Source: Candidatus Kaiserbacteria bacterium (GTDB lineage: Bacteria; Patescibacteriota; Minisyncoccia; Phycocordibacterales; UBA918). From it: a stretch of DNA of 43,482 nucleotides. Numbering within the stretch: position 1 is the first letter of the stretch; each line of letters opens with the position of its first letter. The notes beneath the pieces were generated by a model that was given only the letters and a program-made list of their open reading frames with translations, was not told the origin of the DNA and searched no databases. The stretch covers positions 1-43,482 of the forward strand of contig JAYVHQ010000017.1 of assembly GCA_043771035.1 (NCBI GenBank), given 5' to 3'. A program made the translations under genes and the position numbers. This document shows positions 1 through 22,936 of the stretch, one piece after another.

Positions 1-935
1 TATAGTTTGATTGCAAAACTAAACATCCACAACAAACTTATAATAACTAAAAGAGCAATTACTATCTGTTTAAGCGGGATTATCCAAAAAAATACCGTAC
101 TGGTTACAAAATTTTTTTCATTTTCTCCGAAGCCTAACGTAGCTACCGCTTTAAACCTGCCGATATCATACAATGACGATTCACCAGTCCAGCTGAAATT
201 GAACTTACGAATACTGTTTGGTAAAACATTACCAAAATGTGTTTGATAATTTATCGGAATGATTCCCCTCTGCGCACCCCACATGTTGGTGATAGTGATA
301 TCTCCTTGTGGCTGAAGATGTACATTGCCCGTATTTTGAAAACGAATCTCAAACTCTACTTCTGGCTTAGGTACAATAGAATCTACAGTGGTAAACTCAC
401 GAATATTACCCACTTCTACAATATCACCAGATATTCGAACAAACAGCAAAGAAGTGACAAATTGGGCTGTTTGCACCTGAGGACTAGTGGCCGAAGTTTG
501 CGGTGGTTTTGTGCCAATTAAAATAGCGGCGTAATGACCCCCGGGAGCAGCCGTAGCTGAAACAGTGACCGAAAAAGGGATGCTCACTGTTTGTCCAGGC
601 GGTATGACAAAAGCGCTACCAGAAAGTGCCACCCATTCAGCTAAAGTTTGCCCCTTTGTTTCATCTGAAAATATAGGAACCATGGCTCCTTGACCATTCT
701 CACCTGACGGAGCGAAATTTACGACTTGGGGATAGACAGTAATTTCGTAATCGTTTACGTTTATAACACGAACTTCACTTGACCAAGACTGACTTGGATT
801 GGCAGACATTTGAAAGAGAGTTGGCGACACGCTCAAAGTTTGAGCCTGCATATCTTGAGCTCTCACTACAAGACCGTGTGTAAAAAGTACACACAACAAT
901 ACAAAGAAATAACTATTTTTTAAGATTGATATCAT
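1..935 (-). CDS. Surface-complex anchor-like protein, paralog 1 (3' end cut by the window edge). It has a signal peptide, two beta-sandwich-like domains and a C-terminal TM helix, an architecture like CscA (DUF916/DUF3324-type).
   Basis: The minus-strand frame is open from ATG 935..933 to position 3, with no stop before the window edge, so it is absent from the supplied track. I checked the frame by hand at three places (935, ~569-513, 32-3). The translation starts MISILKNSYFFVLLCVLFTHGLVVRAQD (signal peptide). It continues ...GQTVSIPFSVTVSATAAPGGHYAAILIG... and ...EFEIRFQNTGNVHLQPQGDITITN.... It ends in the hydrophobic helix IVIALLVIISLLWMFSFAI at the edge. The start overlaps the upstream gene end by 23 nt. 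Confidence 0.6.
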   Translation of the reverse strand, partial: MISILKNSYFFVLLCVLFTHGLVVRAQDMQAQTLSVSPTLFQMSANPSQSWSSEVRVINVNDYEITVYPQVVNFAPSGENGQGAMVPIFSDETKGQTLAEWVALSGSAFVIPPGQTVSIPFSVTVSATAAPGGHYAAILIGTKPPQTSATSPQVQTAQFVTSLLFVRISGDIVEVGNIREFTTVDSIVPKPEVEFEIRFQNTGNVHLQPQGDITITNMWGAQRGIIPINYQTHFGNVLPNSIRKFNFSWTGESSLYDIGRFKAVATLGFGENEKNFVTSTVFFWIIPLKQIVIALLVIISLLWMFSFAIKL

Positions 936-1890
936 GATCTTTTTCAATGCCGACAATTCCACTACGAACATACATGGACACATCCCCCTGATCGACTACA
1001 AGCTTGTTTCTTTTTTTATTATAGTATAAAGCTAACATAATCGAACCTAAGAGCATTATTACAAATGAAAGCAATAAATAAACCAAAGGTACTACATTAA
1101 AATAGGCAGTATCATATAAATTAGCTCGCTGGGTTGTGCCGTACTCAATATTGAGCAATGCCTTATGCCGACCAATAATACCTAAATAAGGAATAGTCTG
1201 CTCAAATTTTTCATTACTGCCAGACTTTATTTCTTTTCTTTCCGGATTAACGGGAATAGATGTAACCTCTACTCCACGAGCGTCATAAAAAATAATCTCA
1301 CCCAAAGGGACTATAGGAAGACCGCCAATATTTTCTAATTGGTACGAGACAGTGGCTATACGATCACTCGTGATAAAGCGATTGATATTAAAGAGATTTA
1401 ATCTTAGATATTCATTTCTTTTTTCTACAATTGATAACCGCACGACTACCCCGGGAGCTTGGCCTGAAATCACCAAGGCATCGACCTCGTCACGCTTTGA
1501 ACCCTCGGCAAAGCCTACAAACGCATAGTACTCGCCCGCTTCAGCACTAGGATTTATAGCGAATGAAACTGGTATTTTGATAGTTTCGTTGGGATTTATT
1601 TCCACCCGACCGCGGGTTACTGATATCCAACTAGTGACACTGGTTGAGTTATCACTCATCGAGGCTGGTACAAAAGACCGGACTTCCCCTTCATCACCAA
1701 CCGTAATAGCATTTACTGTAGGGAAAATACGTATTTTTCTATTCGACGTATTGGTTATTTTGACAGTTTCTTCGAAGATATCTCGCGGTTCAACAGTATT
1801 TTCAATAAGTAACGGTGTCACGGCGTATTCAGCAGCCGAAGCTACCTGTGTCATAACGGCAAACAATAAAAGAAAAAAGAAATATTTCAT
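913..1890 (-). CDS. Surface-complex anchor-like protein, paralog 2. It has a signal peptide, two beta-sandwich-like domains, a C-terminal TM helix and a basic tail (CscA/DUF916-DUF3324-like architecture).
   Basis: Track ORF 913..2232 is trimmed to the internal ATG at 1890, which gives MKYFFFLLLFAVMTQVASA/AEY, a clean signal peptide. This start lies 7 nt after the stop of 1898..8059, and the 114 upstream codons only overlap that gene. The C-terminus is VVPLVYLLLSFVIMLLGSIMLALYY followed by NKKRNK. The motifs VSFAINPSAEAGEYYAFVGF and QLENIGGLPIVPLGEIIFYD parallel paralogs 1 and 3. Confidence 0.75.
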   Translation of the reverse strand: MKYFFFLLLFAVMTQVASAAEYAVTPLLIENTVEPRDIFEETVKITNTSNRKIRIFPTVNAITVGDEGEVRSFVPASMSDNSTSVTSWISVTRGRVEINPNETIKIPVSFAINPSAEAGEYYAFVGFAEGSKRDEVDALVISGQAPGVVVRLSIVEKRNEYLRLNLFNINRFITSDRIATVSYQLENIGGLPIVPLGEIIFYDARGVEVTSIPVNPERKEIKSGSNEKFEQTIPYLGIIGRHKALLNIEYGTTQRANLYDTAYFNVVPLVYLLLSFVIMLLGSIMLALYYNKKRNKLVVDQGDVSMYVRSGIVGIEKDHDINLKK

Positions 1891-1897
1891 ACAGTAA

Positions 1898-4800
1898 TTA
1901 ATAGGTTGGGACAGCCAGGTAAACAATTTCTGTTTCATATATACCGGCAGGTTGCAGCGAACTGACACTGACTCTATACAGGATATCATGAACATCACTC
2001 GCGGGAAGAGAGCTGTACATGACTTCTTGTGGCGTAGTCTGCAAGCCAGCATAGCTGTCAAGTGGCGCAAAGCGTGTGGAACCCAAGCCCAAAGTAGCGT
2101 CAGTAGTATGATAACCAATACAACCCGTCGAACTAGCCACACATCCGAGAGCCCAGCTCGATGGCGCAAGATTTGTAGCTGCAATTGAAGGAATTGCGGT
2201 ACCGTAACTATTAAGCAACTGCTGCCGAGCATAACTTAACACCCGATACCCTTCGGTCGCATTAGTGTTAATTTGTATTCTGTGCGCTGAATACCAAGGA
2301 GTATCAAGAGGGATGAAGCCAAAATTAATCGCAGCTGGTGTTGAGGTGGCTGTTGTAACCACTCCAGCAGTAGTCGTTCCTGATGGCAAACCGGTAATGG
2401 TGAGAGATAATTTTGCTGTTTCAGAAACTAAACTAGGATTAACACTGCCGACTTTGAGCGGTACCTGGACTTCATTTAAGGTATCATATAACCTAAAGTA
2501 ATAAACGACTCCTACCCTAGCGATACCCTGTTTCAGATAAAAGGCATACTCTCGATTAGCACTCGGCAGATGGGTATCGCCCAGCGCAAATGTTCCTGAG
2601 GTATTATGAGTACCACAGCCAATACCAGCACTACTGGCACAGCTATTAGCATCAGACAACACTTTTGTGGTGATAGTGGCATTATCAAGTCCGCCACCAA
2701 GCGCGTAACACCAGGTAGAAGTGGCGACACAACTTGAGGTGGACGTTACATCTCGGGGATTGGTGAAGTTTGGATTTTCATCAAACTGCACTTTAAATTT
2801 GACATTCTGTCCCCGTACATTTTTTGCTTCACCGACCGTTACACGCAATGCCAGATTATTACCGTTTTGTATTTCTACTGGCGCATTGTTTTCTACAGCT
2901 AGTGGCCCGCTGGGTGTTTCGCTGGCAGAATCATCATACCAACGCCAATTTTGTGTTTGCGGAGTAAAACCAGCCGTTCTGATTTGCGGATAATTAAAGT
3001 AGCCATCAAGCGTAGTCCCGTCGGCTCTCACCATTTTAAAACAATAGACACTGCGCTCAAGGGCGCCGTTGTGTTCAAGTTGCCAGTCGAATTCAATTTC
3101 TTCGGTGGGATTGGCACCATAGGGGTTAGCGGGGGCGGGATTTTCTTCTACATAACTTCCCGCTCTGTCTGACACAGACAGTAACAAGTCCCCAAAAACC
3201 GGCGGGTTGGTTGAGAGAGGTACGCCGTTTGTTGTACCGGTAGCATTATAGCCGCGCCAAACTGCTGCTCCGCCAGCAGCACCGACGTCGGTCCACGGCG
3301 AGACCGCGGTACAGGAAGTAACGCGTAGACCATACTGTAATTTAAAATCATACAACCCAGCCGGCAGGTTGGCATTTGTTACTCTCAGTGACATGCGCAG
3401 ACGCACCCGGTCGGCTTCGCCGAGCGGCTGATCGGTAATTGATAAAGGCGTATTTTCACCTAGATTACTTACTCCTGGCGGCCAGGGATCAGTTGGTAAG
3501 AGAGAATTATTATCAGCGTATATTCGATAATAATTTTGTCGGACAGCTAAACCGTTAATTGGCCACTCGACAATTTCTGTGCGGTACGTGAGCAAAGCAG
3601 TTGATGCTTCACTCCTCCATACAACATAGGACGAAGTAGATGTGATACTCAGTCCGGTCATCGCTAACGGAAAGTTGGAGTTTGCACCAACAACTCGTGC
3701 TGTCCCCCAAATTGAGGCATTGGTGACGGTTTCCAGTGGCGAGAAAATCGGTACGGCCAAGACGACTGGTTCAGTGCCGTCAGTGGTATTTCCATTACTT
3801 CTTTGCACCTTCATTGCGCCAGCACTGGTTTGCTGATTCTCAATCACCCAAGCTACTGAAGTGTGTGAAGCCGGAGTAGTTGCGGCATCTTCTAATTTAA
3901 ACGACAACGACCCGATACTCGAGAGCCAGACTTCGTGTCCAAAGTTATTGACGTTACCAAGGGCATTGATTCTTTTTTGGGTATGAATAAAGGTTCGCGC
4001 CAAACTGTTTACGGGTGAAATAGATTCTGTTTCAATGACGGTACTTGAGGAATAGGTATGTTCTACCCGCTCTATGTTCCAGTTGATCCCGGTGTACTCT
4101 ACCACTGCGTAACTAACATCGATTATCGCTCCACCAGCACCGCGCTCTAAAAATGGGCGACTGGTAGAACTAATCCACTGCGAAGTGACTGCTCCAGCAT
4201 AGTAAAAGTTACGACCGGCATCTCGATTAGCTATTCCGGTAATAAACACTACTACATCAGCATTATCTGAGACTCCAGGCACGATAAACCCGGTCGAAGA
4301 AGTCGCGATGCTCGCCAAAGAAGTAGTAGCCACTGACAGAACCTTCATCTCATTGTCAGTCCCCGCTTCGGCGATAAACTCAATAATTTCCCAGTAAACT
4401 TGCGTGTTGTTAATAGGTGATGGTGGTCGAGCAATAGTAAAGCTCGTTGCTAAATTGCCAGGATTAGAAATATAAGCAGTCACATCTTTAGCATTTTGTG
4501 CCCCGCCAAGGGTATTTTTACCAGCCCCAGTTATTTGCGTATTCGTAATACGGACAAAGGCGCGCGTCGAGGATGCAGGAGCTACATAGTCTACTCCGGC
4601 AGTGAGTGTCAAGCCGGTCCCTGTGACATTTGACGTACCCCGTTGTATTTTAAAATCACGTTTTGGAGCAGTTTTTATTTCTGCATAATTATCATACTGA
4701 CCAAGTTCAGTACTGGCGTCAGTTACCCGGAAACAATAAATAGTATTGTTGGCAGTAATCCCCGTGGAAGTGATACTGTACTCCAACTCAGTAAAACCCG

Positions 4801-7800
4801 TCTGTGATAATGTGATGCTGCTAGTTAGATCAGACGTGTCTTTAATTCCAGCATTGGCTGACAAAAATGTAACATTGCCATCGATCACTCCACCACTACT
4901 GGTGGCAATATTTGTCGTATTATTTCCGTCGGTGAGATTGGCTGTATTAAACATATTCCAGTCATCATTTGCAGCACCAACGCTCGTCCACACACTAACC
5001 GCACTACAAGAAGTAATTTTTGGCCCATACTCGAGTTGATACTGTACAGCCGATGAAGTGGCTGAGCCTTCATTACTAATACCAATCCGTAACCTGATTG
5101 TGGAGCCGGCTCCATGTTCAGTGAGAAGCGTATTGACACTTCCGCCGGTAGCAGAAGAGGCTGTTGTTTCACTGCCGTTATCAGTCCGCCAATGATAACC
5201 AGTTTGGGCCAAAATTGCGCCTGATAACGTAGTCGTACCTGAAAGCAACACTGGTGTAGTCGGACCAACTGCGCCACTAGAAATAGTGACGTCATTACCT
5301 CCGTTACTAATTTCGATTTCGATTGTTTCGCCATTAGTAGCACCGCTCACGATATCAAACACTACATACACACACATCGCTTGAGTGGTAGTTATCGCTA
5401 CAGAACCAGAAAACGTCGAGCTTCCATTAATATCAGAAAAGCCATCGGTATCTGTTGCCCCAAATTGAAGTTCTGATCCAGCATATGATTCACTGACACA
5501 GTTGTAAGGTGCAGTGGTATCGAGGTCATACCGTAGTTTTATATTATCCAAACTACTCGTGGCATTAACCGTACCAGTTTCGGTGACGGTAATAGCTGTC
5601 ACGTTTCGGGAGCTAACATTTTCTGTGAACGAAAAAGATCCACCGATCATCAGATTTGTTGAGGGAATAACGGCCGAAGAAACTTGCGTCCCCGTTGTAC
5701 CAAGTGTTACATCTGCTGAGACCGTCACCGCTGCATATTGACTATATACAGGCAGAGGTGTGCCAGCGTTTGTTACTCTAAAACAATAGGTGGTTCCCTG
5801 TGAAGCTGATGATGAGGCTACGATAGAGTATTCGATTTCAGTAAAGTTTGTTGTAGCTAAAATCAGTCCTCCAGTCTGTGAAGTGGTATCCAATTGTCCA
5901 CCATTTGGCGTTAAAAAAGTTGTATTTTCATTTACCATTCCCCCGCTTCCCACCGTAATATCAGTTGTATTAGTGCCATTTATGACAAAACTTGAATCAG
6001 ACATACCCCACGCGTCATTCACGGCATTTACATCGGTCCAGCCAGTAGCTACTTCACATGTAGGCGCAGCTTCTGCATATTCCAACCTAAATTGCGTAAC
6101 TGGACTTGAAAGCGTTCCTTCGTTTGAAACTTGTACTCTTAAACGACGGGGTGTGTTTTGGAGTAACGCTGGTAATGGGGTGTCAGCGGTACCGAGGGTG
6201 GCTGAGGTAGCAGCCGTTTCGTTGCCGTTATCATTGCGCCAATGGTAGTGAGTCTGGGTTAAGGTATCGTTATTAATCACTGTCCCAGAGAGAAATGCTA
6301 CGGCAGTTGCAGGAGTAACTACTCCCCCACCTGAAACCAAAATGTCGACTGCGGGATTATTAACATACATTCGTAATGTAGAAGAACTTAAAGCTGAGTC
6401 TAATACATCAACCACGGTATACACACACATTGCCCGAACTGGACTAATATTTACCAAGCCATTGAAAGAAGAAACTCCATCACTACCACTAAAACCATTT
6501 ATATCAGTTGAACCAAATTGAGCTTCTAAACCAGAGTAGGATTCACTGACACAGTCATACGGCGTAGTGGTATCAATATCATACAAAACTTTTATATTTT
6601 TTATGGCGTTACTGGCGTCCACTGTGCCATTTTCTGAAATAGTAATATCTGTCACGTTACGGCTAACCTGATTTTCTTTTAGTAATATTGTGCCTCCAGT
6701 ATAAACATTAGTGGAACTCGCCGACACAGACGCAGTTGGGGTACCTAAAGTAGAAGCTTTTGTAACCGGCGCAATATCGGCTACGGTATTTCCAAAAATT
6801 TCGTCAGGATTAGTCCCGGGGTCTTCCCATGACGCATAAATACGTTCGTCACTCATGATGTTCATATCAAGACCATACATATCGGCAGTCACGGTATTAA
6901 CCGGTCCTCTCTCGGCACTCCAGGCAGACATGGCGCTCGTTGAGGTAGCGTAATAGACATTACCAGTAGTAGCAGTAGCGGGGGTTGTACGCAAAACGTA
7001 CGCTACGTACACCTCGCCTAGATTTACATCTAGGGATATAGCAACTCCATGTAAGCCTCTGGTTGTATTTGTAAATACATTTGCTGTTGCTGACCATGAA
7101 CCACTCACGTATTTTGCCGTTCTCACATCGTGGTCAAGTACCGTATAGTTATCATTATCAGCCGCATAGGCTAAATAGATATCTCCCGTTATCTGATCTT
7201 GTGTCAAAGCCATACCAACATCATAGGTAGCGCTGTGAACAGCGTTACTATCAACCGCTAACCAGCTACCAGACCAAGCTGTTCCATTCCAGACTTTTGA
7301 TCGAATATCAAAAGCAGAAATATCACGATTTACCAAAAGCATGTCACCTCCTAAAAGCGGCATTAAGATACTCCAGTCATTGGCCGCCTCAGTGTATGGC
7401 GTCGTAATTTCACCCCAACCACCAGTTGTATTACAGCTACTACTACACCTGACTACAAATGAATCCGAGACGGCAGGCGAAGTCATATAAAGCACGCCGT
7501 CAGTACCTTTAGAGATTGACTGTTCATTTGTTCCCGCGACATACACAGGAACTTGGCCGGAATTTACGATAGTACTGATGGGTGCCGACCCCAGTAACCT
7601 GGTATCACTAGTTGTATCGAGCCTGTTATACCAAAGATCGTCATTACCAACATCCATAGTTGAGATGTGAATGTTGGTTCCAGAGTCCCCGGGCGTCCAA
7701 CCGTCATACCACACAGCAATGCTGGTACAGTCAGTTTGAGCATCAACAATAACGGCGGCACTCCACGCATTACCACCGTTGGTAGTTTTACTATAGGAAC

Positions 7801-8059
7801 ATTCTCCACCACCATCTACAAAAAATTTATACCCGACTTGATCAGATATAAACACTGTCTGTGAACCAGCAAATAAATGCTCAGTAGCAGTAGTACTAAC
7901 AGCTCCGTCAATAGTGACTACCGCAGCTTCGGCGACTTTTGGCACTAAGAATTCTAAAAAAGTTAATTGCGTTGCCACAATTACAAAAATAAGTCCGGCC
8001 GTAATAATACGCTGTCTAAAGTTACAACTAAAAAACGAAGGATACCTCCCCATGGTCAT
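1898..8059 (-). CDS. Giant (2,053 aa) secreted surface protein. It has an N-terminal signal anchor, a BNR/Asp-box-like beta-propeller, a 2 x 350-codon tandem repeat, a unique ~370-aa region, further YxW/YCFR-type beta-sandwich modules and a C-terminal pilin/WxL-like domain.
   Basis: The ORF is uninterrupted for 6.2 kb. The N-terminus IITAGLIFVIVATQLTFLEFLVPKVAEAA/VV looks like a signal peptide or anchor. The composition is Thr/Ser/Gly/Asn-rich and poor in charged residues, typical of extracellular beta-rich proteins. There is no LPXTG and no C-terminal TM. Confidence 0.9.
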   Translation of the reverse strand: MTMGRYPSFFSCNFRQRIITAGLIFVIVATQLTFLEFLVPKVAEAAVVTIDGAVSTTATEHLFAGSQTVFISDQVGYKFFVDGGGECSYSKTTNGGNAWSAAVIVDAQTDCTSIAVWYDGWTPGDSGTNIHISTMDVGNDDLWYNRLDTTSDTRLLGSAPISTIVNSGQVPVYVAGTNEQSISKGTDGVLYMTSPAVSDSFVVRCSSSCNTTGGWGEITTPYTEAANDWSILMPLLGGDMLLVNRDISAFDIRSKVWNGTAWSGSWLAVDSNAVHSATYDVGMALTQDQITGDIYLAYAADNDNYTVLDHDVRTAKYVSGSWSATANVFTNTTRGLHGVAISLDVNLGEVYVAYVLRTTPATATTGNVYYATSTSAMSAWSAERGPVNTVTADMYGLDMNIMSDERIYASWEDPGTNPDEIFGNTVADIAPVTKASTLGTPTASVSASSTNVYTGGTILLKENQVSRNVTDITISENGTVDASNAIKNIKVLYDIDTTTPYDCVSESYSGLEAQFGSTDINGFSGSDGVSSFNGLVNISPVRAMCVYTVVDVLDSALSSSTLRMYVNNPAVDILVSGGGVVTPATAVAFLSGTVINNDTLTQTHYHWRNDNGNETAATSATLGTADTPLPALLQNTPRRLRVQVSNEGTLSSPVTQFRLEYAEAAPTCEVATGWTDVNAVNDAWGMSDSSFVINGTNTTDITVGSGGMVNENTTFLTPNGGQLDTTSQTGGLILATTNFTEIEYSIVASSSASQGTTYCFRVTNAGTPLPVYSQYAAVTVSADVTLGTTGTQVSSAVIPSTNLMIGGSFSFTENVSSRNVTAITVTETGTVNATSSLDNIKLRYDLDTTAPYNCVSESYAGSELQFGATDTDGFSDINGSSTFSGSVAITTTQAMCVYVVFDIVSGATNGETIEIEISNGGNDVTISSGAVGPTTPVLLSGTTTLSGAILAQTGYHWRTDNGSETTASSATGGSVNTLLTEHGAGSTIRLRIGISNEGSATSSAVQYQLEYGPKITSCSAVSVWTSVGAANDDWNMFNTANLTDGNNTTNIATSSGGVIDGNVTFLSANAGIKDTSDLTSSITLSQTGFTELEYSITSTGITANNTIYCFRVTDASTELGQYDNYAEIKTAPKRDFKIQRGTSNVTGTGLTLTAGVDYVAPASSTRAFVRITNTQITGAGKNTLGGAQNAKDVTAYISNPGNLATSFTIARPPSPINNTQVYWEIIEFIAEAGTDNEMKVLSVATTSLASIATSSTGFIVPGVSDNADVVVFITGIANRDAGRNFYYAGAVTSQWISSTSRPFLERGAGGAIIDVSYAVVEYTGINWNIERVEHTYSSSTVIETESISPVNSLARTFIHTQKRINALGNVNNFGHEVWLSSIGSLSFKLEDAATTPASHTSVAWVIENQQTSAGAMKVQRSNGNTTDGTEPVVLAVPIFSPLETVTNASIWGTARVVGANSNFPLAMTGLSITSTSSYVVWRSEASTALLTYRTEIVEWPINGLAVRQNYYRIYADNNSLLPTDPWPPGVSNLGENTPLSITDQPLGEADRVRLRMSLRVTNANLPAGLYDFKLQYGLRVTSCTAVSPWTDVGAAGGAAVWRGYNATGTTNGVPLSTNPPVFGDLLLSVSDRAGSYVEENPAPANPYGANPTEEIEFDWQLEHNGALERSVYCFKMVRADGTTLDGYFNYPQIRTAGFTPQTQNWRWYDDSASETPSGPLAVENNAPVEIQNGNNLALRVTVGEAKNVRGQNVKFKVQFDENPNFTNPRDVTSTSSCVATSTWCYALGGGLDNATITTKVLSDANSCASSAGIGCGTHNTSGTFALGDTHLPSANREYAFYLKQGIARVGVVYYFRLYDTLNEVQVPLKVGSVNPSLVSETAKLSLTITGLPSGTTTAGVVTTATSTPAAINFGFIPLDTPWYSAHRIQINTNATEGYRVLSYARQQLLNSYGTAIPSIAATNLAPSSWALGCVASSTGCIGYHTTDATLGLGSTRFAPLDSYAGLQTTPQEVMYSSLPASDVHDILYRVSVSSLQPAGIYETEIVYLAVPTY
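1901..2415 (-). other. C-terminal class-1 module (pilin/WxL-like beta-sandwich) of the 2,053-aa protein.
   Basis: The segment LSLTITGLPSGTT..AAINFGFIPLD..HRIQINTNATEGYRVLSYARQQL...LQPAGIYETEIVYLAVPTY aligns motif for motif with the C-terminus of the 383-aa protein (14106..14670): FTFTVAGLPGGTD..TAIPFGQLVAD..QRLSVSTNASYGFAVTVQVDQQL...LQEAGNDYTATLTYVATPVF. Confidence 0.5.
4660..6770 (-). repeat. Tandem duplication of a ~1.05-kb (350-codon) unit inside the 2,053-aa gene.
   Basis: Homologous landmarks HYHWRNDNG (Y codon at 6247) and GYHWRTDNG (Y codon at 5197) are exactly 1,050 nt apart. The flanking peptides are collinear: NVTDITISENGTVDASNAIKNIKVLYDIDTTTPYDCVSESYSG versus NVTAITVTETGTVNATSSLDNIKLRYDLDTTAPYNCVSESYAG. 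Both units end in YCFRVT. Confidence 0.85.
6770..7925 (-). other. BNR/sialidase-like beta-propeller region (N-terminal domain of the 2,053-aa protein).
   Basis: There is an Asp-box-like KTTNGGNAWS (compare S-x-D-x-G-x-T-W). Blade-like motifs recur: VWNGTAWSGSW, YVSGSWSATANV and AMSAWSAERG. Confidence 0.4.
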
Positions 8060-8142: not shown

Positions 8143-9651
8143 CTAAATACTAACGGCTTCTGATGCTGGAGCCACATATGGTGGTATCGATAGCGTTCCG
8201 GTATCTTCAGTCATAATTACAGGCGGATTTAAATCCAAAGTAAGCTCGTGAAGACTGCCTGAAGTTGAGGAAGCTACTACAGTACTACCAGCAGTAGCAT
8301 TAGAGGATGAAGCGATTACCAAATCGTTTGGTTGTGGACTAGGTGGGTTACTACCGACTGGCTCTTTAGGGGGAAGGATGTTCTCTGCAATATCAGTATC
8401 TTCCTTAGTAGGATTCTTCCCTTGTAGTAGTGCTCTAGTCTCACCGGTGGAGTCAGGTTCAGGTAAGTCCTCTGGCAAATCGGCCGCTTTACTAGCTAGG
8501 GGGGTAATTTCACCAGTATCTACATCATACCCTTTGGTTATGATGTCACCATTAGCAAACTCCGTTTCATAGACTAAAACCATCCGGGGGTTAGATAGTG
8601 CGCCGCCTTCTGTATCACTAATGGTGGTCAGTTCTTTGGTGACAATGTCATACAATTCAATAGTCTGGGTGTTGTCAGAATTTAAACGATTCCACATTAC
8701 TAAATCACCTTTTATTTTAGGAGCAATGTCATGTTGCTCACTCTGTGTAAGGTACATTGTTTCAACACCGTCATACAACACAACATCCCAGTTGTTATTA
8801 TTCCATCTTTGCCAAACAGTGAAGTCGCCCGCCCTACTGGGCTCCATATTGTTAACGGTATCAGCCGTTAATTGAACTTCGGTGTTGGATGTTAAATCAA
8901 AAGAAATTATTTGGTATCTTTCATTAATCTGTCTATGCCAGACTATGGTGTTTGATTTTGAATCAAAATAAGGGGCAGCATCATCAACTGTATTGAATGT
9001 AAGCTGTGTCAGTTCAGCATTTTTTTGTAAAAAAATCTCTAAGTCCCCATCAATATCTTGAAGGGAATACAGTCCATCAGTTGTAGTATCCGTCGCATCT
9101 TTTTTAACTTGGCAATAAAATGATCCGTCCTCGACTGTCACACAGTCACTCTTATCGAACTGCACTACTTGGTCACTGTAGACAGTAGAAATAGCTACGG
9201 GGATTTCGGTTGAAGATGCGGTGGTCGTGCTGGCTTCTGCTATATCATAAGCAGCAATCTCATCTTCATCATTGATAAGATCTTGGATTTCTTGATCAGA
9301 AAATATAGTAGTGGTCACCGTAGTACTAGCATTATCACTAGTAGCAAGCGAGGTTGAGGTTGAGGTTGTAGAGGTTGGGTCAGTGGTACTCACAGAAGGT
9401 ATGGTCACAGATTCAGTAGTGTCAGTAGTAGTGTTAGTTAAATTAGCATCAACAGCCAAGTTAATTATCTCAGGAACAGCTAGCTCAGCAAAGTCAGTTT
9501 GACTCGCATATAAACGAGACATTGGTTGTAGTAAAAAAGAAAGGCACAAACACAAAACCACCGCAGTAGATACACGGGAACAAAACACGTTACGGTAGAG
9601 AGTTACCTGACGTGGTCTTATATTTTTTTGAATTTGGTTGGCTTTGTTCAC
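8143..9651 (-). CDS. Membrane-anchored surface protein with a Thr/Ser-rich stalk, beta-propeller-type repeats and a Pro/Ser-rich C-terminal tail.
   Basis: The 502-codon ORF has a GTG start at 9651 (the codon reads gtg on the minus strand). There is a hydrophobic segment VSTAVVLCLCLSFLL. A low-complexity stretch TTDTTESVTIPSVSTTDPTSTTSTSTS follows. Repeats of the type IVWHRQINERYQIISFDLTSNTEVQLT, FTVWQRWNNNNWDVVLYDG and LVMWNRLNSDNTQTIELYDIVTKELTTIS resemble TolB-like or archaeal beta-propeller repeats. Confidence 0.75.
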   Translation of the reverse strand: MNKANQIQKNIRPRQVTLYRNVFCSRVSTAVVLCLCLSFLLQPMSRLYASQTDFAELAVPEIINLAVDANLTNTTTDTTESVTIPSVSTTDPTSTTSTSTSLATSDNASTTVTTTIFSDQEIQDLINDEDEIAAYDIAEASTTTASSTEIPVAISTVYSDQVVQFDKSDCVTVEDGSFYCQVKKDATDTTTDGLYSLQDIDGDLEIFLQKNAELTQLTFNTVDDAAPYFDSKSNTIVWHRQINERYQIISFDLTSNTEVQLTADTVNNMEPSRAGDFTVWQRWNNNNWDVVLYDGVETMYLTQSEQHDIAPKIKGDLVMWNRLNSDNTQTIELYDIVTKELTTISDTEGGALSNPRMVLVYETEFANGDIITKGYDVDTGEITPLASKAADLPEDLPEPDSTGETRALLQGKNPTKEDTDIAENILPPKEPVGSNPPSPQPNDLVIASSSNATAGSTVVASSTSGSLHELTLDLNPPVIMTEDTGTLSIPPYVAPASEAVSI

Positions 9652-9765: not shown

Positions 9766-10524
9766 TTATTTTGTAAAGTAATCTGAAAGTAAAATAGAAA
9801 AATCCCGGAACGTCATTTGCCCATCATTATTAAAATCAAATTTTTGCTGGCGACTGGTCCAGTTGGCCATAAAAGAACTAATATCACGCAGTGATACCTC
9901 ACCATCGCCATCTATGTCCGTCACCACAGCAAAACCTACACTCCCCTCCAAAGTAGTGCCATCAGCTGGTTTTGCACCCAAAGCAAACACCTGAGTAGTA
10001 ATTTTCGCTCGCGATATATCGGCGTTGATAGCAGTACCTTTCCCATCTCCCGCTAAAAGCTTTACCTCACCGGCAAAAAATTGTGCGCTACCAGCTGTTT
10101 TAGCCTTAACATTAATCGTAGCAATTTTATGCTCACCCACAAATCCTCTTTTAAAAGTACCACCACGCAAAATAACTTTATCGTTACTCACAAAGGGCTC
10201 TTCTGTCCACAAGGTAATTACCGAATTACCTTTATCGATACCTAAAACTTCGACCTGACCTAAAGGATAGGCCAAACTGATGTCAACAGCGTTCACGGGA
10301 GCATCAGCAAAGACAAATACATCAAGTGAAAATGTCGAACCAATTTCAACATTAGTCTCACTAGACACTACTTTTATATAGGACCCCTTCGTACCAGAGA
10401 CGGCCGCAATGCTCGCAATCGCCGCAAAGACAAACAAAAAAGAAAAGGCATAGCGAACAGTCGGAGAGTTTTTTAAGCCCAGAGTTGGAAAAACTTTGAT
10501 TAAAGCTCTCCGTACTAAACTCAT
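9766..10524 (-). CDS. Secreted or anchored protein with a cohesin-like domain and a C-terminal type-I-dockerin-like module.
   Basis: The N-terminal hydrophobic segment is YAFSFLFVFAAIASIAAVSG. The cohesin-like core (about 10014..10389) reads VEIGSTFSLDVFVFADAPVNAVDISLAYPLGQVEVLGIDKGNSVITLW...KIATINVKAKTAGSAQFF..LLAGDGKGT. The dockerin-like duplicated Ca-loop (9769..9927) reads DIDGDGEVSLRDISSFMANW ... DFNNDGQMTFRDFSILLSDY. The ATGA start/stop overlap with 10521..11198 indicates translational coupling. Confidence 0.8.
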   Translation of the reverse strand: MSLVRRALIKVFPTLGLKNSPTVRYAFSFLFVFAAIASIAAVSGTKGSYIKVVSSETNVEIGSTFSLDVFVFADAPVNAVDISLAYPLGQVEVLGIDKGNSVITLWTEEPFVSNDKVILRGGTFKRGFVGEHKIATINVKAKTAGSAQFFAGEVKLLAGDGKGTAINADISRAKITTQVFALGAKPADGTTLEGSVGFAVVTDIDGDGEVSLRDISSFMANWTSRQQKFDFNNDGQMTFRDFSILLSDYFTK

Positions 10525-11206: not shown

Positions 11207-12958
11207 TTATTTTTTAAAGACAGTAGTAACATCATGCACCTCTTTTCCTACTCGATTTTTTGCTTCAGCAATCACTGCTCTTAGCTCTGAGAATAATTCG
11301 GTTTCAAATTTACTCAATTTGTTAGTTTTATGTGAAGCCACACATTTTGCTTCTTGAGCTTTCAGGACCTGTTCCAGATGGTAAAACTCTGCCTCTAACA
11401 TCAGCTCAGCTTCATTAGATTCTACTATAACTCGTTTACGCAAGCGACCCATTTTTTGGATTGAATACAAAAGTGTCAACCATGTCAATACACACAAAGC
11501 AATCAAAGGAATAAGCACCGAGAGGAAACTAATGAGAAATGTACCAACCGCTACATAGCCTGGCTTTGATACAGTAATAGTTACGGTATCTGAAGGTTCA
11601 CTTTGGGCACCAAAGGTATCGGTAGCAGTGACACTCAAGGTATACCGTCCGACAACAAACGACTCAGCTGGTATTAATGAAAACGCACCACTGCCGTCAG
11701 CTGTTGCGCTCAGAGTCTGCTCTACTCCAGCTGGTGAAGTGAGTAAACCAACTACCGTAGCATTTGGTTTGGTGGTACCTAAAAAGGCAGGTATAACACC
11801 AACATTGAGAGTTGCTGGAAATTGTGTAATAAGTGGCTTTTCAAAAGAGGTAATGGTAAACGAGAGTGTGGCTATAAGTGAATTCATCGCCGCATCAAAC
11901 CCTTCAATCACCACTGTATGATAACCAGGAGCAAGCGAGGGCAAGATAAGGTTTGCTGGTGTATTAGTTGCGCTGTATTCATAAGGTACGGCTCCATCAA
12001 TCTGTACTTTAAAAAGCTTTACACTCGAGGTTTTATCTACAGTATTAAGAGAAACAGTTTGATTTGGATTTGAAAAGTCAGCATTATCTGCCAGTTTAAT
12101 TTCAAACGACTCAGGTTTTTGTGAATCAATGGCAATTTTATAATGTTTGATTTTACCCCAACCATCAGCATTTTTAAACTGAACATGGAGATAAGACACT
12201 CCCTCAGGCACATCTGAAATAGATAGTGTTTTAATTGGACTGTCGTAGACTTTGGTGGGAATGGCTATCGGACTGGTATCAAGACCGGTTCGTACGGCTA
12301 CTACACCAGCTGGCACCGTCCAGTTAAAGACCGCATTTTTTTCCTTTGACCACTTTGCTTCGTCAGGGTGGGAATTTGAGGTAATTTGTGGCGCTGCTGG
12401 TGTATTGGCTGGCGCAACGAATTCCACTATTACCTCAGGTGCTGGCTGGGATTCCACCACTGATAGAGTGTAGGTTCCGCCGCTCATATTTGTGAGAACA
12501 TTAGTCCCCTTTCCATCAGCAGCCAAAACAGAGGCCCCCGTTAGTGAAATCCGGGCAGCACCTGAAGTAAGTGATTTGAAGGTAACGGTAAACACAGCCC
12601 CCGCAGTACCGGTATAGCCAGTAGGAACTCCACCACTAAATGTCACCGTACCGGCTGAGTTTGAAAACGTTGGCTCGGTAGTCCATAAACTAAAAATAGA
12701 TGAGCTCCGAGAGGCGGCCACGACCGATAGTTCACGAGGATTAAACGACAGTGTTCCGTCAGCGGCATTAACAGGAACTCCAGAGGTGTTGACATACACG
12801 GTGACTGAAAAAGTCGCGCCTGTTTTATAGACTCCCGTACTCGGTGATACAAGCAACGTAGCCGCACTTGCAAAATAAGGCGTTACCAAAAAGAGCGCCC
12901 CAAACAGGATAGCTACGACTGTAGTATGTTTTAGTGTTCGCACTTTTGTTATTAGCAT
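11207..12958 (-). CDS. Membrane-anchored cohesin-like scaffold protein. It has a signal peptide, a cohesin-like domain, Ig-like domains, a TM helix and a cytoplasmic coiled-coil tail.
   Basis: The signal peptide is VVAILFGALFLVTPYFASA/ATL. The cohesin-like core (about 12463..12862) reads LLVSPSTGVYKTGATFSVTVYVNTSGVPVNAADGTLSFNPRELSVV...SIFSLWTTEP...GAVFTVTFKSLTSGAARISL..VLAADGKGT. The TM helix is VAVGTFLISFLSVLIPLIALCVLTWLTLLY. A charged helical tail follows. Confidence 0.8.
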   Translation of the reverse strand: MLITKVRTLKHTTVVAILFGALFLVTPYFASAATLLVSPSTGVYKTGATFSVTVYVNTSGVPVNAADGTLSFNPRELSVVAASRSSSIFSLWTTEPTFSNSAGTVTFSGGVPTGYTGTAGAVFTVTFKSLTSGAARISLTGASVLAADGKGTNVLTNMSGGTYTLSVVESQPAPEVIVEFVAPANTPAAPQITSNSHPDEAKWSKEKNAVFNWTVPAGVVAVRTGLDTSPIAIPTKVYDSPIKTLSISDVPEGVSYLHVQFKNADGWGKIKHYKIAIDSQKPESFEIKLADNADFSNPNQTVSLNTVDKTSSVKLFKVQIDGAVPYEYSATNTPANLILPSLAPGYHTVVIEGFDAAMNSLIATLSFTITSFEKPLITQFPATLNVGVIPAFLGTTKPNATVVGLLTSPAGVEQTLSATADGSGAFSLIPAESFVVGRYTLSVTATDTFGAQSEPSDTVTITVSKPGYVAVGTFLISFLSVLIPLIALCVLTWLTLLYSIQKMGRLRKRVIVESNEAELMLEAEFYHLEQVLKAQEAKCVASHKTNKLSKFETELFSELRAVIAEAKNRVGKEVHDVTTVFKK

Positions 12959-12967
12959 AGGAAATGA

Positions 12968-13972
12968 TTAAAGGACTATATCGTCACTGGCCGGTGAAAC
13001 AAACTTTTTTTGCGCTCGTCTTTTCCGCACTTGCCAAATCACCAATAGAACAACAATGAACAAAGTTGCACCCAGAGCCAGTAGCACCAATAGCTCGGTA
13101 CTGAGAACAAATTTTTGGTGAGCGGTATCGATAGGTAGGGTGACAATATATTCATTACCAGCTTTATCAATGGCACGCACCCGGACTACACTATTACGAC
13201 TTTGGTCTTTGAGTAAATGTGGGCTTTTAGTTTTTACCCAAGGTGCATTGGCTGCTCCAAAGTTAAATAATTTAGACTGTTTATAACTCTCTTCAATCAC
13301 TTCATAATGGCTAATGCCTGTCTGTTTATCAGTAGTGTTAAAGACTACGTACCATTGATTATTTATAGATTCTATGCTGGCACTAAAGTCCTCAGGTGGC
13401 AGTTCGTCAGACTGCACATCAGTACTCCACGGATCTAAAATTTCGGCTCCTACTGTATCAGCCAGAGTAAAATTAGCACCAAACTTTTGTAGATTTGCTT
13501 GCGTACCTTTACCGTCATTTAGATACGCTGTTGTGGCATCAGTAAATTGTACAGTGGCGGCGCTACGGGCCTCCCCACCACCCACCTGCATACCGGGTGC
13601 CCTAAAGAAAATTTCAACTAACGTATTAGTGAGATTGGGGTCACCTTGCACCCGTCCACAATAGCCATTAGGGATGCCTCCGGCGAAACTTATAGTCCGA
13701 TTTTCTTTATTAATAACGGGTGCCTCTACCCAAATTGGAAAGATAGATTTACCAACGGTAATGTCGACAGGAATAATACTCTCACTATAGGAAACAACCG
13801 CGTCCACGGCATTAATACACTCACCTGCTGCCTCATCAGTATCTAATCTAATCGAAATTTTAGTAGCGTCGCCACGATTTAGACTGGCTGTGTTTGGGTC
13901 CATGTACAAAGTGGCAGCCGAAACTGTCTGCACCGAAAATAGCAAAAAAAGAATCCCGAGAAAATACCTCAT
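12968..13972 (-). CDS. Membrane-anchored cohesin-like protein with a signal peptide, a cohesin-like domain, a second beta domain and a C-terminal TM plus basic tail.
   Basis: Track ORF 12968..14029 is trimmed to ATG 13972, giving MRYFLGILFLLFSVQTVSA/ATLYMDP. The 19 upstream codons overlap the terminator hairpin of the preceding gene. The cohesin-like core (about 13460..13915) reads ATKISIRLDTDEAAGECINAVDAVVSYSESIIPVDITVGKSIFPIW...LVEIFFRAPG...YLNDGKGT. The TM is LLVLLALGATLFIVVLLVIW followed by QVRKRRAQKK. Confidence 0.75.
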   Translation of the reverse strand: MRYFLGILFLLFSVQTVSAATLYMDPNTASLNRGDATKISIRLDTDEAAGECINAVDAVVSYSESIIPVDITVGKSIFPIWVEAPVINKENRTISFAGGIPNGYCGRVQGDPNLTNTLVEIFFRAPGMQVGGGEARSAATVQFTDATTAYLNDGKGTQANLQKFGANFTLADTVGAEILDPWSTDVQSDELPPEDFSASIESINNQWYVVFNTTDKQTGISHYEVIEESYKQSKLFNFGAANAPWVKTKSPHLLKDQSRNSVVRVRAIDKAGNEYIVTLPIDTAHQKFVLSTELLVLLALGATLFIVVLLVIWQVRKRRAQKKFVSPASDDIVL

Positions 13973-14020
13973 AGTGATTATAGTATAGCTCAAAGTAAAG
14001 TACCTAAGGCCAGCTTGTAC

Positions 14021-14059
14021 ACAAAGCAAAAACCCTACTCGTGGTGGGAGATAGGGTTT
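14021..14059 (-). terminator. Rho-independent terminator of the 383-aa gene.
   Basis: The minus strand reads AAACCCTATCTCC-CACCAC-GAGTAGGGTTT followed by TTGCTTTGT. The stem is 8+3 bp (30-37 pairing with 52-59, and 38-40 with 48-50) with a 1-nt bulge. It lies 44 nt after the stop at 14103. Confidence 0.6.
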
Positions 14060-14102
14060 ATTGCATTGTACTCCAAGCTTGGATCCACTATTCTAAATTA
14101 AT

Positions 14103-15254
14103 TTAGAATACTGGTGTTGCTACGTATGTCAGCGTAGCGGTGTAATCATTTCCTGCTTCTTGCAAAGCAGTTATTTCAACTTGATAGGCCACATCAGCAC
14201 GCCCAATATTTTGAGTCGTACCATCAGCTGGTCCACCGTGACGAAATACCTGTACTGGTGTCGTTGACGCTGAAACAAAACGGTCACCAGTTGAACTTGC
14301 GTTAAATGGGTCCAACAATCCGAACGTTGCGTCATTAGAGGTAATACCCCAGTGACCCCACGTATTTTCGTTTGAGATTGATGGTGATGGTGGCGCCCAA
14401 GACACAGGTGTTGATGTGTAGGCCCCATCAATGAAACCGTCAATATCCGCACCTGATGACGAAGTCAACTGCTGATCTACCTGCACTGTTACCGCAAAGC
14501 CATAACTAGCATTAGTAGATACACTTAACCTCTGTCCTGCTGATGAGGCAGTATCAGCAACGAGTTGCCCAAATGGAATCGCGGTTGCCGTTGATGATCC
14601 AGTTGTTATCAGACTGTTGACGTCAGTACCGCCTGGCAAACCAGCTACCGTAAAGGTAAAACTAGTATCCACAGCAGCGGTGACAACAACTGGTGCAATA
14701 ATGGCTACTCGAGTTGACCCAGTATCACTTGCTCCAGCCGTAATATCGATTTCATACGATCCTACAGTAGGGTTTCGTAACTGTCTGGTTCCTGTTACTC
14801 CAAAGTTGGCATGCTTACCAATTTTAATGGTAGTTGTGCCCGCTGGGTCGATTGATGCTCCGTCACCACTACAAAAAGTGAGCGTAATGAGGTTAGTACT
14901 GGTTGCAAATCCAATTTCATCGGTAGCGGCACAACTGGCAGCCACACTAAGGTTAGTGCTACCGTCAATTACGTCAACATCAGCAAAAGTGGTACTCCCG
15001 AGTAGAAACGGTCCATTAGCTAAACTTATAGTAATAGTTGAACCATTTGCAATACCAGTTGGTGTTACAAAGGTCAGCGTATGGTTTGATCCAACACTCG
15101 GTGCTGAATCAGAGAGGGTGTCGCTAAGCGACGTGACACTTGCAGCTTCGGCGAACCGAAGTGACGGCAAACCGATTGACCATAATAATATGGCAAAGGC
15201 TGCAATCGCTGCAATAGCTTGGAGTAGCCCGAACGTGGTATTCGTTCTACTCAT
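14103..15254 (-). CDS. Secreted 383-aa protein with a class-1 pilin/WxL-like C-terminal module. It is a candidate major surface or fibre subunit.
   Basis: The signal peptide is LLQAIAAIAAFAILLWSIGLPSLRFAEAA/S. This is the same AEAA motif as in the 2,053-aa protein. The protein is Thr/Ser/Gly-rich with no TM or LPXTG at the C-terminus. The gene is monocistronic, sitting between a 573-bp AT-rich upstream region and its own terminator. Confidence 0.85.
   Translation of the reverse strand: MSRTNTTFGLLQAIAAIAAFAILLWSIGLPSLRFAEAASVTSLSDTLSDSAPSVGSNHTLTFVTPTGIANGSTITISLANGPFLLGSTTFADVDVIDGSTNLSVAASCAATDEIGFATSTNLITLTFCSGDGASIDPAGTTTIKIGKHANFGVTGTRQLRNPTVGSYEIDITAGASDTGSTRVAIIAPVVVTAAVDTSFTFTVAGLPGGTDVNSLITTGSSTATAIPFGQLVADTASSAGQRLSVSTNASYGFAVTVQVDQQLTSSSGADIDGFIDGAYTSTPVSWAPPSPSISNENTWGHWGITSNDATFGLLDPFNASSTGDRFVSASTTPVQVFRHGGPADGTTQNIGRADVAYQVEITALQEAGNDYTATLTYVATPVF
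14106..14670 (-). other. C-terminal class-1 module of the 383-aa protein, homologous to 1901..2415.
   Basis: See the alignment under feature 1901..2415. The ending GNDYTATLTYVATPVF resembles the terminal G-x-Y-x-x-x-L-x-W-x-L-x-x-x-P motif of WxL domains, with W replaced by Y. Confidence 0.5.
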
Positions 15255-15827: not shown

Positions 15828-16400
15828 ATGGAAAGAGTTCCTACTGCAAAGGCAATGATCCTTAGTTTTATCGATAAGGGTATCGCTGAACCCACTTTTG
15901 CCCCAGTGTATTTGACCGCCAAACTCTCAGCAGTTGACGCAAAGAGCATACAAACTGATCTTTCACGCGCCGGCGAAAGTCTCTGGCACGGTCGAGCTTA
16001 TCATAGTAGGATGAAAGGAGATATTCACACTTACCCTACTATCGATCTTACCAAGTTCCCTTGGACGGGACGTGAAAGCGTCATGTTCGAATCAGTTCGC
16101 GACGGCACGCTTATGTCGGATATGCAGCAACAACTCGATGAAGCGCTCGCATCTCTACCTTTCCAAATACGACCGGTCAATGACAGTCGTGGGTTGTGGC
16201 TAGATTCCTTTAAAGATGAGGGGGATTTGAATCGGTACTTTTACTTTGAACTTTTCTGCAAATCCGAAATCCCTGAATGGATCACCGGCCTCGGCTCGAT
16301 GCGGATGAGTGGGTCATGGTATGTATTCCTCCCAAGCCCTTCACCAGACTGGATCTCATTCTTAAGATCAGTAAACTCAGCCGTACAAAAGCGGATTTAG
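15828..16400 (+). CDS. Hypothetical cytoplasmic protein (190 aa). It is the only convincing plus-strand gene.
   Basis: It has a good SD, no signal peptide and a mixed charged composition unlike the rest of the island. I recognise no family. Confidence 0.6.
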   Translation: MERVPTAKAMILSFIDKGIAEPTFAPVYLTAKLSAVDAKSIQTDLSRAGESLWHGRAYHSRMKGDIHTYPTIDLTKFPWTGRESVMFESVRDGTLMSDMQQQLDEALASLPFQIRPVNDSRGLWLDSFKDEGDLNRYFYFELFCKSEIPEWITGLGSMRMSGSWYVFLPSPSPDWISFLRSVNSAVQKRI

Positions 16401-16974: not shown

Positions 16975-17099
16975 TAAAACTTTATAAAATTAGTGCAATT
17001 CGAGGCAGGCAAGGAAAATCTTGCGAGCCGTACTTATTGTACGGTGAGTAAGATTTTACCGCAGCCTAACGAAGAAGTGTGCAATTTTATAAAGTTTTA
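16975..17099 (+). repeat. E-element copy E1, a 125-bp unit with 17-bp perfect terminal inverted repeats and a conserved internal hairpin. It is either MITE-like or a structured RNA.
   Basis: The ends read TAAAACTTTATAAAATT ... AATTTTATAAAGTTTTA. The internal part reads GCAAGGAAAATCTTGCGAGCCGTAC-TTATT-GTACGGTGAGTAAGATTTTACCGCAGC. The right end supplies part of the TAA stop (17097-17099) of the dockerin gene. Confidence 0.75.
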
Positions 17100-19207: not shown

Positions 19208-19253
19208 CAATAAAAAGCAATAACCACCGGTCTAATAGCGGTGGTTATTGCTT
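19208..19253 (-). terminator. Strong rho-independent terminator after the 631-aa gene.
   Basis: A perfect 15-bp stem pairs AAGCAATAACCACCG (19215-19229) with CGGTGGTTATTGCTT (19239-19253) around a 9-nt loop. On the minus strand it is followed by TTTTATTG. Confidence 0.8.
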
Positions 19254-22902: not shown

Positions 22903-22936
22903 CATAAACATACAACCTTGCGGTTGTTGTTATGCT
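22901..22936 (-). terminator. Hairpin with a GCAA tetraloop overlapping the ATPase stop codon. It may be an intra-operon attenuator or stabiliser.
   Basis: The minus strand reads AGCATAA-CA-ACAACC-GCAA-GGTTGT-ATGT-TTATGCT, followed by TTGTTCCCGATTTGC. That is two 6-bp helices with an internal loop. The U-tract is weak. Confidence 0.3.

Follow-up and report, generated by a model that had tools for sequence, protein, structure and literature searches.

What do three related membrane-anchored proteins do when their genes stand beside those of much larger secreted proteins that lack a C-terminal anchor? The locus that raises this question lies in a 43,482-nucleotide (nt) stretch of contig JAYVHQ010000017.1 (assembly GCA_043771035.1, positions 1 to 43,482 of the forward strand) from a Candidatus Kaiserbacteria bacterium of the Paceibacteria; we refer to the whole stretch as the window. 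Bacteria of the Candidate Phyla Radiation (CPR) live attached to other microbes, and their mode of contact is largely unknown. The three proteins, hereafter A, B and C (Table 1), were taken in the original prediction for paralogous transmembrane (TM) anchors of the CscA type, that is, the DUF916 plus DUF3324 proteins of Firmicute WxL loci. We consider it probable, if far from certain, that they are instead the membrane-anchored chaperones and/or the anchor of a donor-strand-exchange fibre of the Pam type, in a Paceibacteria variant. Since their neighbours end in a module related to the Pam pilin C-terminal domain (CTD), the locus is better termed a Pam-type pilus locus than a WxL/Csc locus.

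The three open reading frames (ORFs) were found on the minus strand where the original prediction had placed them, together with the motifs it had named, namely, GGHYAAILIG and FQNTGNVHLQPQG in A, GEYYAFVGF and LENIGGLPIVPLG in B, and YEGKIRIRT and LENTGNVDIAPSK in C. The spacing it described was likewise recovered: the stop codon of the gene encoding a protein of 2,053 amino acids (aa) at 1898-1900 is separated by 7 nt from the start codon of B (ATG at 1890), the reading frames of B and A share 23 nt, and C starts 92 nt after a 631-aa gene. We set the start of B at 1890 and not at 2232, where the longer ORF begins, because 95 homologs of about 325 aa share this beginning. The large upstream neighbours are indeed anchorless, in the sense that they have neither a C-terminal TM helix nor an LPXTG motif, and their long N-terminal hydrophobic segments were read by eye as putative signal peptides. 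The paralogy itself held up beyond the signal peptide and the TM helix. A and B align by BLASTP across 297 aa (E 2e-20), and C is pairwise only weakly similar to A (E 1e-5) and to B (E 2e-4). Using an alignment of 47 orthologs for the C family, and with signal peptides and TM helices stripped before hhalign, the ectodomain profiles of the C and A/B families align collinearly at Prob 96-98% and E 5.6e-9 to 2.3e-13. Domain 1 pairs with domain 1 (E 7.5e-7) and domain 2 with domain 2 (E 1.6e-9), cross-domain pairs giving E 0.16-0.24. A hidden Markov model (HMM) of the A/B ectodomain built without C matches exactly three ORFs in the window, C among them at E 7.6e-16.

The AlphaFold2 model of B (mean predicted local distance difference test score, pLDDT, 82.6) contains two beta-sandwich domains and a helix at residues 269-294. 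The shared layout that had been proposed applies to B and C in full. Since A is cut by the window edge, a single C-terminal TM helix with a basic tail is demonstrated for B and C only, and for A this part of the claim needs correction: in its orthologs (59% and 45% identical, 544-546 aa) the first TM helix is followed by a basic loop, a further TM helix and LytR_C (PF13399, E 3e-9 to 8e-6). Homologs and related loci of the paralogs are all from Patescibacteria (labelled Kaiserbacteria, Parcubacteria and similar), and the A/B family comprises 10,344 clusters at 50% identity (E<=1e-3). The cytoplasmic tail of B (913..1010, minus strand) ends in a near-invariant KDHDINLK (H319, D320, I321, L323), and a similar H-V/I-x-x-L ending is found in the consensus of the wider family; such conservation suggests a cytoplasmic contact rather than a plain basic stop-transfer tail.

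The Pam system is known from a 2026 preprint (Troman et al., bioRxiv 10.64898/2026.03.03.709456), in which the thin filaments that Ca. Mycosynbacter amalyticus, a CPR bacterium, produces were solved by cryo-electron microscopy. In its pilins, PamA and PamB, a nine-strand sandwich at the N-terminus is followed by a linker strand, which the adjacent subunit receives, and by an immunoglobulin (Ig)-like CTD that is truncated; PamC and PamD are PapD/FimC-like two-domain chaperones, unusually with a C-terminal TM helix; and PamR, which resembles RbmA in its tandem domains and also has a C-terminal TM helix, is proposed to be the pilus terminator and anchor (10.64898/2026.03.03.709456). The preprint describes the system for Saccharimonadia and Microgenomatia, and mentions neither WxL, DUF916, Paceibacteria nor adhesins (10.64898/2026.03.03.709456).

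An all-against-all BLAST of the proteins encoded next to A, B and C revealed two types of C-terminal module. Residues 1869-2053 of the 2,053-aa protein represent type 1, which recurs in a 383-aa protein (31.6% identity, E 1e-15). Type 2 is common to the 631-aa protein and a giant protein (E 4e-13) whose reading frame is open to the window edge (43480), so that the protein must be longer than 5,743 aa, with its N-terminus outside the window. The giant and the 2,053-aa protein also have several internal repeat modules in common (up to 41% identity). The NCBIfam model NF058581 (CPR_Pam_pilin_C) matches the module of the 383-aa protein at E 5e-6 and that of the 2,053-aa protein at E 4.1e-6, here over profile positions 4-148 of 148, and it matches all 24 of the 24 type-1 modules collected from diverse genomes (best E 4.7e-11). 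Judged by this model, the type-1 modules are distant relatives of the Pam pilin CTD, but not members by NCBI's rule. On the side of the anchored proteins, the top Foldseek matches of the B model are WxLIP, RbmA, CfaA and CupB2 (E 5e-11 to 1e-7). Those relevant to Pam are RbmA (4kkp, E 1e-9), CfaA (4ncd, E 1.9e-9) and CupB2 (3q48, E 1.2e-7), i.e., the same classes, RbmA and fimbrial chaperones, that the preprint cites for PamR and PamC/PamD. No Pam-chaperone match was obtained for A, B or C in the NCBIfam search, and the PamA/PamB entries 25PZ and 25QA were absent from the matches in PDB sequence and fold searches.

The 383-aa protein is the candidate for the pilin. Its AlphaFold2 model has a confident multi-strand N-terminal sandwich and a CTD with pLDDT 25-54; such low stand-alone confidence is as expected, because the fold would be one strand short. 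Because of these same CTD values, the Foldseek search of the model is informative for the N-terminal domain only, which resembles BslA/YweA, Gram-positive pilin domains and adhesins. The linker is conserved and follows an alternating V-x-V-x-A-x-V pattern, and there is an invariant cysteine pair, C108/C128. As modelled, this succession of an N-terminal sandwich, a linker and a weakly folding CTD fits the layout of a Pam pilin. More than 1,845 homologs were found, of which the best 120 are 62-100% identical, the N-terminal signal region MSRTNTTFGLLQA included. The protein is strongly conserved across Paceibacteria and is probably a very abundant surface protein.

The association of the paralogs with CTD-bearing proteins is conserved in related genomes. 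For C we compared 50 species-level genomes, restricting counts to loci whose retrieved stretch reaches the gene in question. The genes for the ABC ATPase and the MacB permease come first, then the 631-aa gene, C and the 371-aa gene, and beyond a gap of variable length the pilin-like 383-aa gene and cohesin-like genes. C is preceded by the 631-aa gene in all 47 loci that reach it, and followed by the 371-aa gene in all 48. The MacB/FtsX permease and ABC ATPase genes stand directly upstream of the 631-aa gene in nearly all 50 genomes. A search for related loci with the family alignment or with B alone found no locus, and the context of A and B was obtained from seven divergent loci (L060-L066) through contigs encoding B homologs of 27-48% identity. 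The order that recurs there is a giant gene with a type-1 end, a B-like gene, an A-like gene, a type-1 pilin-like gene and a third paralog. The run from the giant CTD-bearing gene through the B-like to the A-like gene is present in L060 to L063 and in L065, L064 having no giant gene upstream, and pilin-like genes adjoin further paralogs in L061 and in L063 to L066. Typical compact loci encode two CTD-bearing proteins and three TM-anchored paralogs, the number of PamC, PamD and PamR. In L066 (5835..8243), a locus of another CPR lineage, a single 802-aa protein unites two chaperone-like ectodomains with LytR_C. From these patterns it follows that paralog type co-varies with client module, A and B going with type 1 and C with type 2. 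In L061, likewise outside the lineage of the window, a 355-aa paralog (13131..14198) lies directly after the pilin-like gene.

Taken as a Pam-type system, the locus would work as follows. The 383-aa protein would be the major pilin, with its N-terminal sandwich, a linker donated as a strand and a truncated Ig-like CTD, and would polymerise through the linker strand. The 2,053-aa protein, which, like FimH and PapG, terminates in a pilin domain, would most likely be a giant adhesin within or capping the fibre; further clients would be the two proteins with the second module, namely, the 631-aa protein and the giant of at least 5,743 aa. A, B and C would be counterparts of PamC and PamD, the PapD-like anchored chaperones, and/or of PamR, the RbmA-like anchor. 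After Sec export, a strand of the anchored two-domain protein is predicted to fill the open groove of the client's C-terminal module. This strand might then be swapped for the linker strand of the next subunit, as in a chaperone, or be retained and so tether the fibre to the membrane, as in an anchor. By the pairing proposed above, B and A would serve type-1 clients and C type-2 clients, and A, with its extra TM helix and LytR_C, would be the best candidate for a wall-linked anchor.

The CscA-type assignment was partly correct. WxLIP proteins consist of a PGBD (DUF916), an HBD (DUF3324) and a TM helix, and their genes are clustered with those of at least two WxL proteins; in an AlphaFold prediction a DUF916 strand inserts into WxL (PMC10599100). 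Single-sequence Pfam and PDB searches of A, B and C gave sub-threshold PF06030 matches or nothing: A matched PF06030 at E 0.0013 and B at E 0.015, both short of the gathering score of 27.3 with 15.8-19.1 bits, and C alone gave no WxLIP signal with Pfam PF06030 or hhalign. At the level of the family, PF06030 is the most frequent Pfam match (30 of 37 members at E<=1), and at E<=0.01 it is found in 17 of 91 members versus 4 of 91 for the next family. The 355-aa paralog of L061, which is 32% identical to A, scores 37.4 bits, above the gathering score. A search of 177,635 PDB sequences with the family profile returned EfmWxLIP1 only (9i25_C and 9i1y_A, E 0.0065), a match that was lost with a broader family profile. 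For direct comparison we drew on an Enterococcus lactis genome locus and on plasmid records for a Firmicute reference set of nine WxLIPs and thirteen WxL domains, and took the background of hhalign from unrelated beta domains, which score 10-23. The full-length comparison with the WxLIPs (E 6e-12) was discounted, as signal peptide, TM helix and basic tail push its score up. Ectodomains alone align at Prob 82-83% and E ~1e-5 over 210-218 collinear columns, and domain 1 aligns with the PGBD of the nine WxLIPs at Prob 89-94%, E 1e-7 to 2e-6 and score 41-46. By these profile comparisons, domain 1 is distantly homologous to DUF916/WxLIP_PGBD, and A, B and C are homologs of WxLIP_PGBD but not PF06030 members by Pfam's rule.

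The second half of the assignment fared differently. PF11797 (DUF3324, WxLIP_HBD) has no match in the sets of 37 and 91 family members, and domain 2 scores 18-23 against HBD, which is the level of the background. Opposite NQIDKxxxYFDLK, the N-terminal WxLIP motif of the PGBD (PMC10599100), hhalign places an 11-residue gap in the CPR proteins. The comparison with structures of the CscA type, which the original prediction had suggested, spoke for the assignment, WxLIP ranking 2nd to 4th in the Foldseek search of B (E ~5e-11), with low TM-scores (0.22-0.44) and many other tandem-Ig proteins close behind. Thus, the architecture (for B and C), the DUF916 relationship of domain 1 and the structural likeness were borne out, while DUF3324, the WxLIP motif and WxL neighbours were not.

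We also considered whether the client modules themselves are WxL domains. To the eye type 1 is WxL-like, with FG followed by TNA-x-x-G-aromatic-x-V and the ending DYTATLTYVATPVF. Its hhalign alignment to Firmicute WxL is marginal (E 0.005, Prob 7-9%) and in register across the FG...G-aromatic-x-aliphatic region; the score of 26 is the best cross-family one for type 1, other domains in those rows scoring 10-19. The C-terminal motifs are alike as well (LTYVATPVF versus LTWNLVAGP, and LTYSIVTGP in B. cereus). Column-shuffle controls were exceeded, a control we judged too lenient because unrelated beta domains score up to ~23. WxL (PF13731) had no Pfam match in any neighbour or C-terminal module, including the 24 type-1 members, a PDB profile search with the C-terminal modules gave no significant WxL support, and reciprocal HMM searches between WxL and the CPR modules stayed at E>0.1. 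With Pfam, PDB profile, reciprocal HMM and hhalign comparisons all non-significant or marginal, we rejected a WxL identity of the client modules.

These results bear on two other readings of the locus. In one of them, A, B and C are CPR versions of WxLIP that permanently hold anchorless proteins through their C-terminal modules without polymerisation, so that the locus encodes a surface-display complex of the Csc/WxL kind and not a fibre. The homology of domain 1 to WxLIP_PGBD, the Foldseek ranks, the identical domain order with TM helix and basic tail, the marginal preference of type 1 for Firmicute WxL with its similar C-terminal motif, and the structure 9i25, in which a WxLIP is bound to a long WxL protein, all speak for it. 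However, the missing PF13731 and PF11797 signals in neighbours, modules and family members, the non-significant reciprocal HMM searches and the absence of NQIDKxxxYFDLK argue against it, the clients match the pilin CTD model instead, and the pilin-with-linker layout of the 383-aa protein points to polymerisation. We regard this reading as unlikely, and it differs from the one we favour in mechanism rather than in ancestry, as the profile comparisons suggest that WxLIP and these chaperone-like proteins are related. Alternatively, A, B and C could be generic membrane-anchored Ig-like proteins (COG1470/NEW3/CARDB-like) whose adjacency to the large genes reflects co-expression of envelope proteins with no direct binding. 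This would agree with the weak Pfam matches of family members to fn3_5, NPCBM_assoc, OCRL_ASH, DUF4832 and CARDB, with the loss of the WxLIP match in the PDB under the broader profile, and with the annotation of one homolog merely as 'uncharacterized membrane protein'. It is the more doubtful of the two, and we think it improbable, since PF06030 stands clearly above other Ig families in match frequency and profile score, the tight adjacency to CTD-bearing genes (7-nt gap, 23-nt overlap) is kept down to ~27% identity, and type-1 modules go with A and B, type-2 modules with C.

Several points also weigh against the Pam-type reading itself. The roles in the Pam operon are AlphaFold-based proposals of a preprint (10.64898/2026.03.03.709456), and the likeness of A, B and C to PamC, PamD and PamR is drawn from the published descriptions and the fold class, not from the sequences of those proteins. 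The TM-scores behind the fold class are low, as noted, and tandem Ig-like folds are common. The NF058581 matches, which cover the profile over its full length, all fall short of the curated cut-off of 55 bits: the two window proteins reach 26.7 and 27.0 bits, and orthologs at most 43. The type-2 module beside C had no Pam match in the NCBIfam search, and its similarity to type 1 is marginal (hhalign E 0.016). Finally, domain 1 comes closest in sequence to WxLIP, a protein for which the role of a stable anchor is described and not that of a chaperone.

Table 1. Genes and modules of the locus, in window coordinates
Feature	Position	Strand	Description
Paralog A	3..935 (span 1..935)	-	311 aa visible, 3' end beyond the window edge; signal peptide, two Ig-like domains, first TM helix
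Paralog B	913..1890	-	325 aa; signal peptide, two beta-sandwich domains, TM helix 269-294, cytoplasmic tail
2,053-aa secreted protein without C-terminal membrane anchor	1898..8059	-	Putative giant adhesin
Type-1 C-terminal module of the 2,053-aa protein	1901..2335	-	About residues 1909-2053; ending GIYETEIVYLAVPTY; NF058581 relative
383-aa Pam-pilin-like protein	14103..15254	-	N-terminal beta-sandwich, linker VAIIAPVVVTAAV, type-1 C-terminal module at about 14106..14588
371-aa protein	17097..18212	-	1 nt downstream of C; Cys-rich repeats, Ig-like domains, dockerin-like C-terminus
Paralog C	18214..19179	-	321 aa; signal peptide, two Ig-like domains, TM helix, basic tail RRQGRKDD
631-aa secreted protein	19272..21167	-	Directly upstream of C; C-terminal type-2 module at about 19275..19865
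MacB/FtsX-type permease	21468..22676	-	Next upstream of the 631-aa gene
ABC ATPase	22930..24252	-	Upstream of the permease gene
Giant protein, at least 5,743 aa	26207..43482	-	Type-2 module at about 26210..26761, at the C-terminus; frame open at the window edge

Nearly all genes of the window are on the minus strand (Table 1). The sole sizeable plus-strand ORF (15828..16400, 190 aa) falls in the gap of variable length that separates the 371-aa gene from the 383-aa gene; it had no family match, and no tblastn match in the 50 related loci. The 92 nt that separate the 631-aa gene from C contain a hairpin followed by a T-rich run (19223..19242, minus strand), which could attenuate read-through, as after major pilin genes; the scan count of hairpin-type sites in this region was no higher than in shuffled sequence. 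The ABC ATPase has a C-terminal extension of ~220 aa without Pfam coverage. A 502-aa protein (8143..9651, minus strand) has a Thr/Ser-rich N-terminal region and weak matches to TolB-like beta-propeller repeats, and its gene is kept upstream of the 2,053-aa gene in related loci (counterparts of 486-571 aa). Three further minus-strand genes encode proteins of 252, 583 and 353 aa (9766..10524, 11207..12958 and 12968..14029) that have an N-terminal module of ~170 aa in common (BLASTP 1e-4 to 4e-11). The 583- and 353-aa proteins end in TM helices, the 252- and 371-aa proteins in dockerin/EF-hand-like segments, and a neighbouring gene in L063 is annotated as PF00963 (Cohesin), so that the same cluster may hold a surface assembly of the cohesin-dockerin type.

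The Pam system itself is already known from other CPR classes through the preprint; new here are the Paceibacteria host, the giant CTD-bearing proteins, the second client module and a paralog with LytR_C. Because synteny is kept in the 50 species-level genomes wherever the stretch reaches, and the family has ~10,000 clusters at 50% identity, our results suggest that a Pam-related system is a conserved core feature of the Paceibacteria. The giant proteins with pilin-domain ends are obvious candidates for host-recognition adhesins. The most interesting lead is the sequence link between WxLIP/DUF916 and Pam-type chaperones with a membrane anchor, which was unreported in the literature searched. 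One possible, if tentative, generalization is that the WxLIP-WxL display of Firmicutes and the Pam chaperone-pilin pair of CPR bacteria are two branches of one ancient monoderm machinery, in which an anchored two-Ig protein completes a strand-deficient client CTD. DUF916 proteins would then be anchored donor-strand chaperones or anchors, WxL domains would be relatives of pilin CTDs, and the Paceibacteria would use the machinery to mount adhesins of several thousand residues on a fibre for contact with host cells. For the WxL systems of enterococci, listeriae and lactobacilli, the link offers a mechanistic hypothesis, namely, strand complementation and not plain peptidoglycan binding.

Three known systems invite comparison. 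With WxLIP/CscA/DufA (PDB 9i1y, 9i25), the paralogs share the architecture and a size of about 320-380 aa, the C-terminal helix with a basic tail, a domain 1 homologous to PGBD (DUF916), and genes placed beside those of anchorless surface proteins whose C-terminal domain is predicted to be engaged through a beta-strand. They differ in lacking a DUF3324 signal and the NQIDKxxxYFDLK motif, and the locus has no WxL-domain partner and no LPXTG protein; the partners are pilin-like and the phylum is another. With PapD, FimC and CfaA of chaperone-usher pili, they share the two-Ig-domain fold (Foldseek E 1e-9 to 1e-7) and, as proposed here, donor-strand complementation of a pilin domain of the truncated Ig type; FimH and PapG parallel the adhesin whose C-terminus is a pilin domain. 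Unlike those soluble chaperones, they are membrane-anchored, there is neither an usher nor an outer membrane, and the sequences have no detectable similarity. In comparison with the Pam system, the host belongs to the Paceibacteria and not to the Saccharimonadia or Microgenomatia, the pilin-CTD matches fall below the NCBIfam cut-off, and one such CTD ends a 2,053-aa protein. Furthermore, a second client module without a Pam match is present in the 631-aa protein and in the protein of at least 5,743 aa, the A type has an extra TM helix and LytR_C, and MacB/ABC and cohesin/dockerin-like genes lie nearby where ATP synthase genes lie in the published loci. On the other hand, A, B and C resemble PamC, PamD and PamR in coming from a CPR host, in their build (signal peptide, two beta-sandwich domains, C-terminal TM helix) and in their structural neighbours, which include RbmA in both cases and fimbrial chaperones, of the PapD/FimC type in the preprint and CfaA and CupB2 here. 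They likewise share genes beside those of proteins with a truncated Ig CTD of the Pam-pilin type, and three such membrane-anchored proteins per locus.

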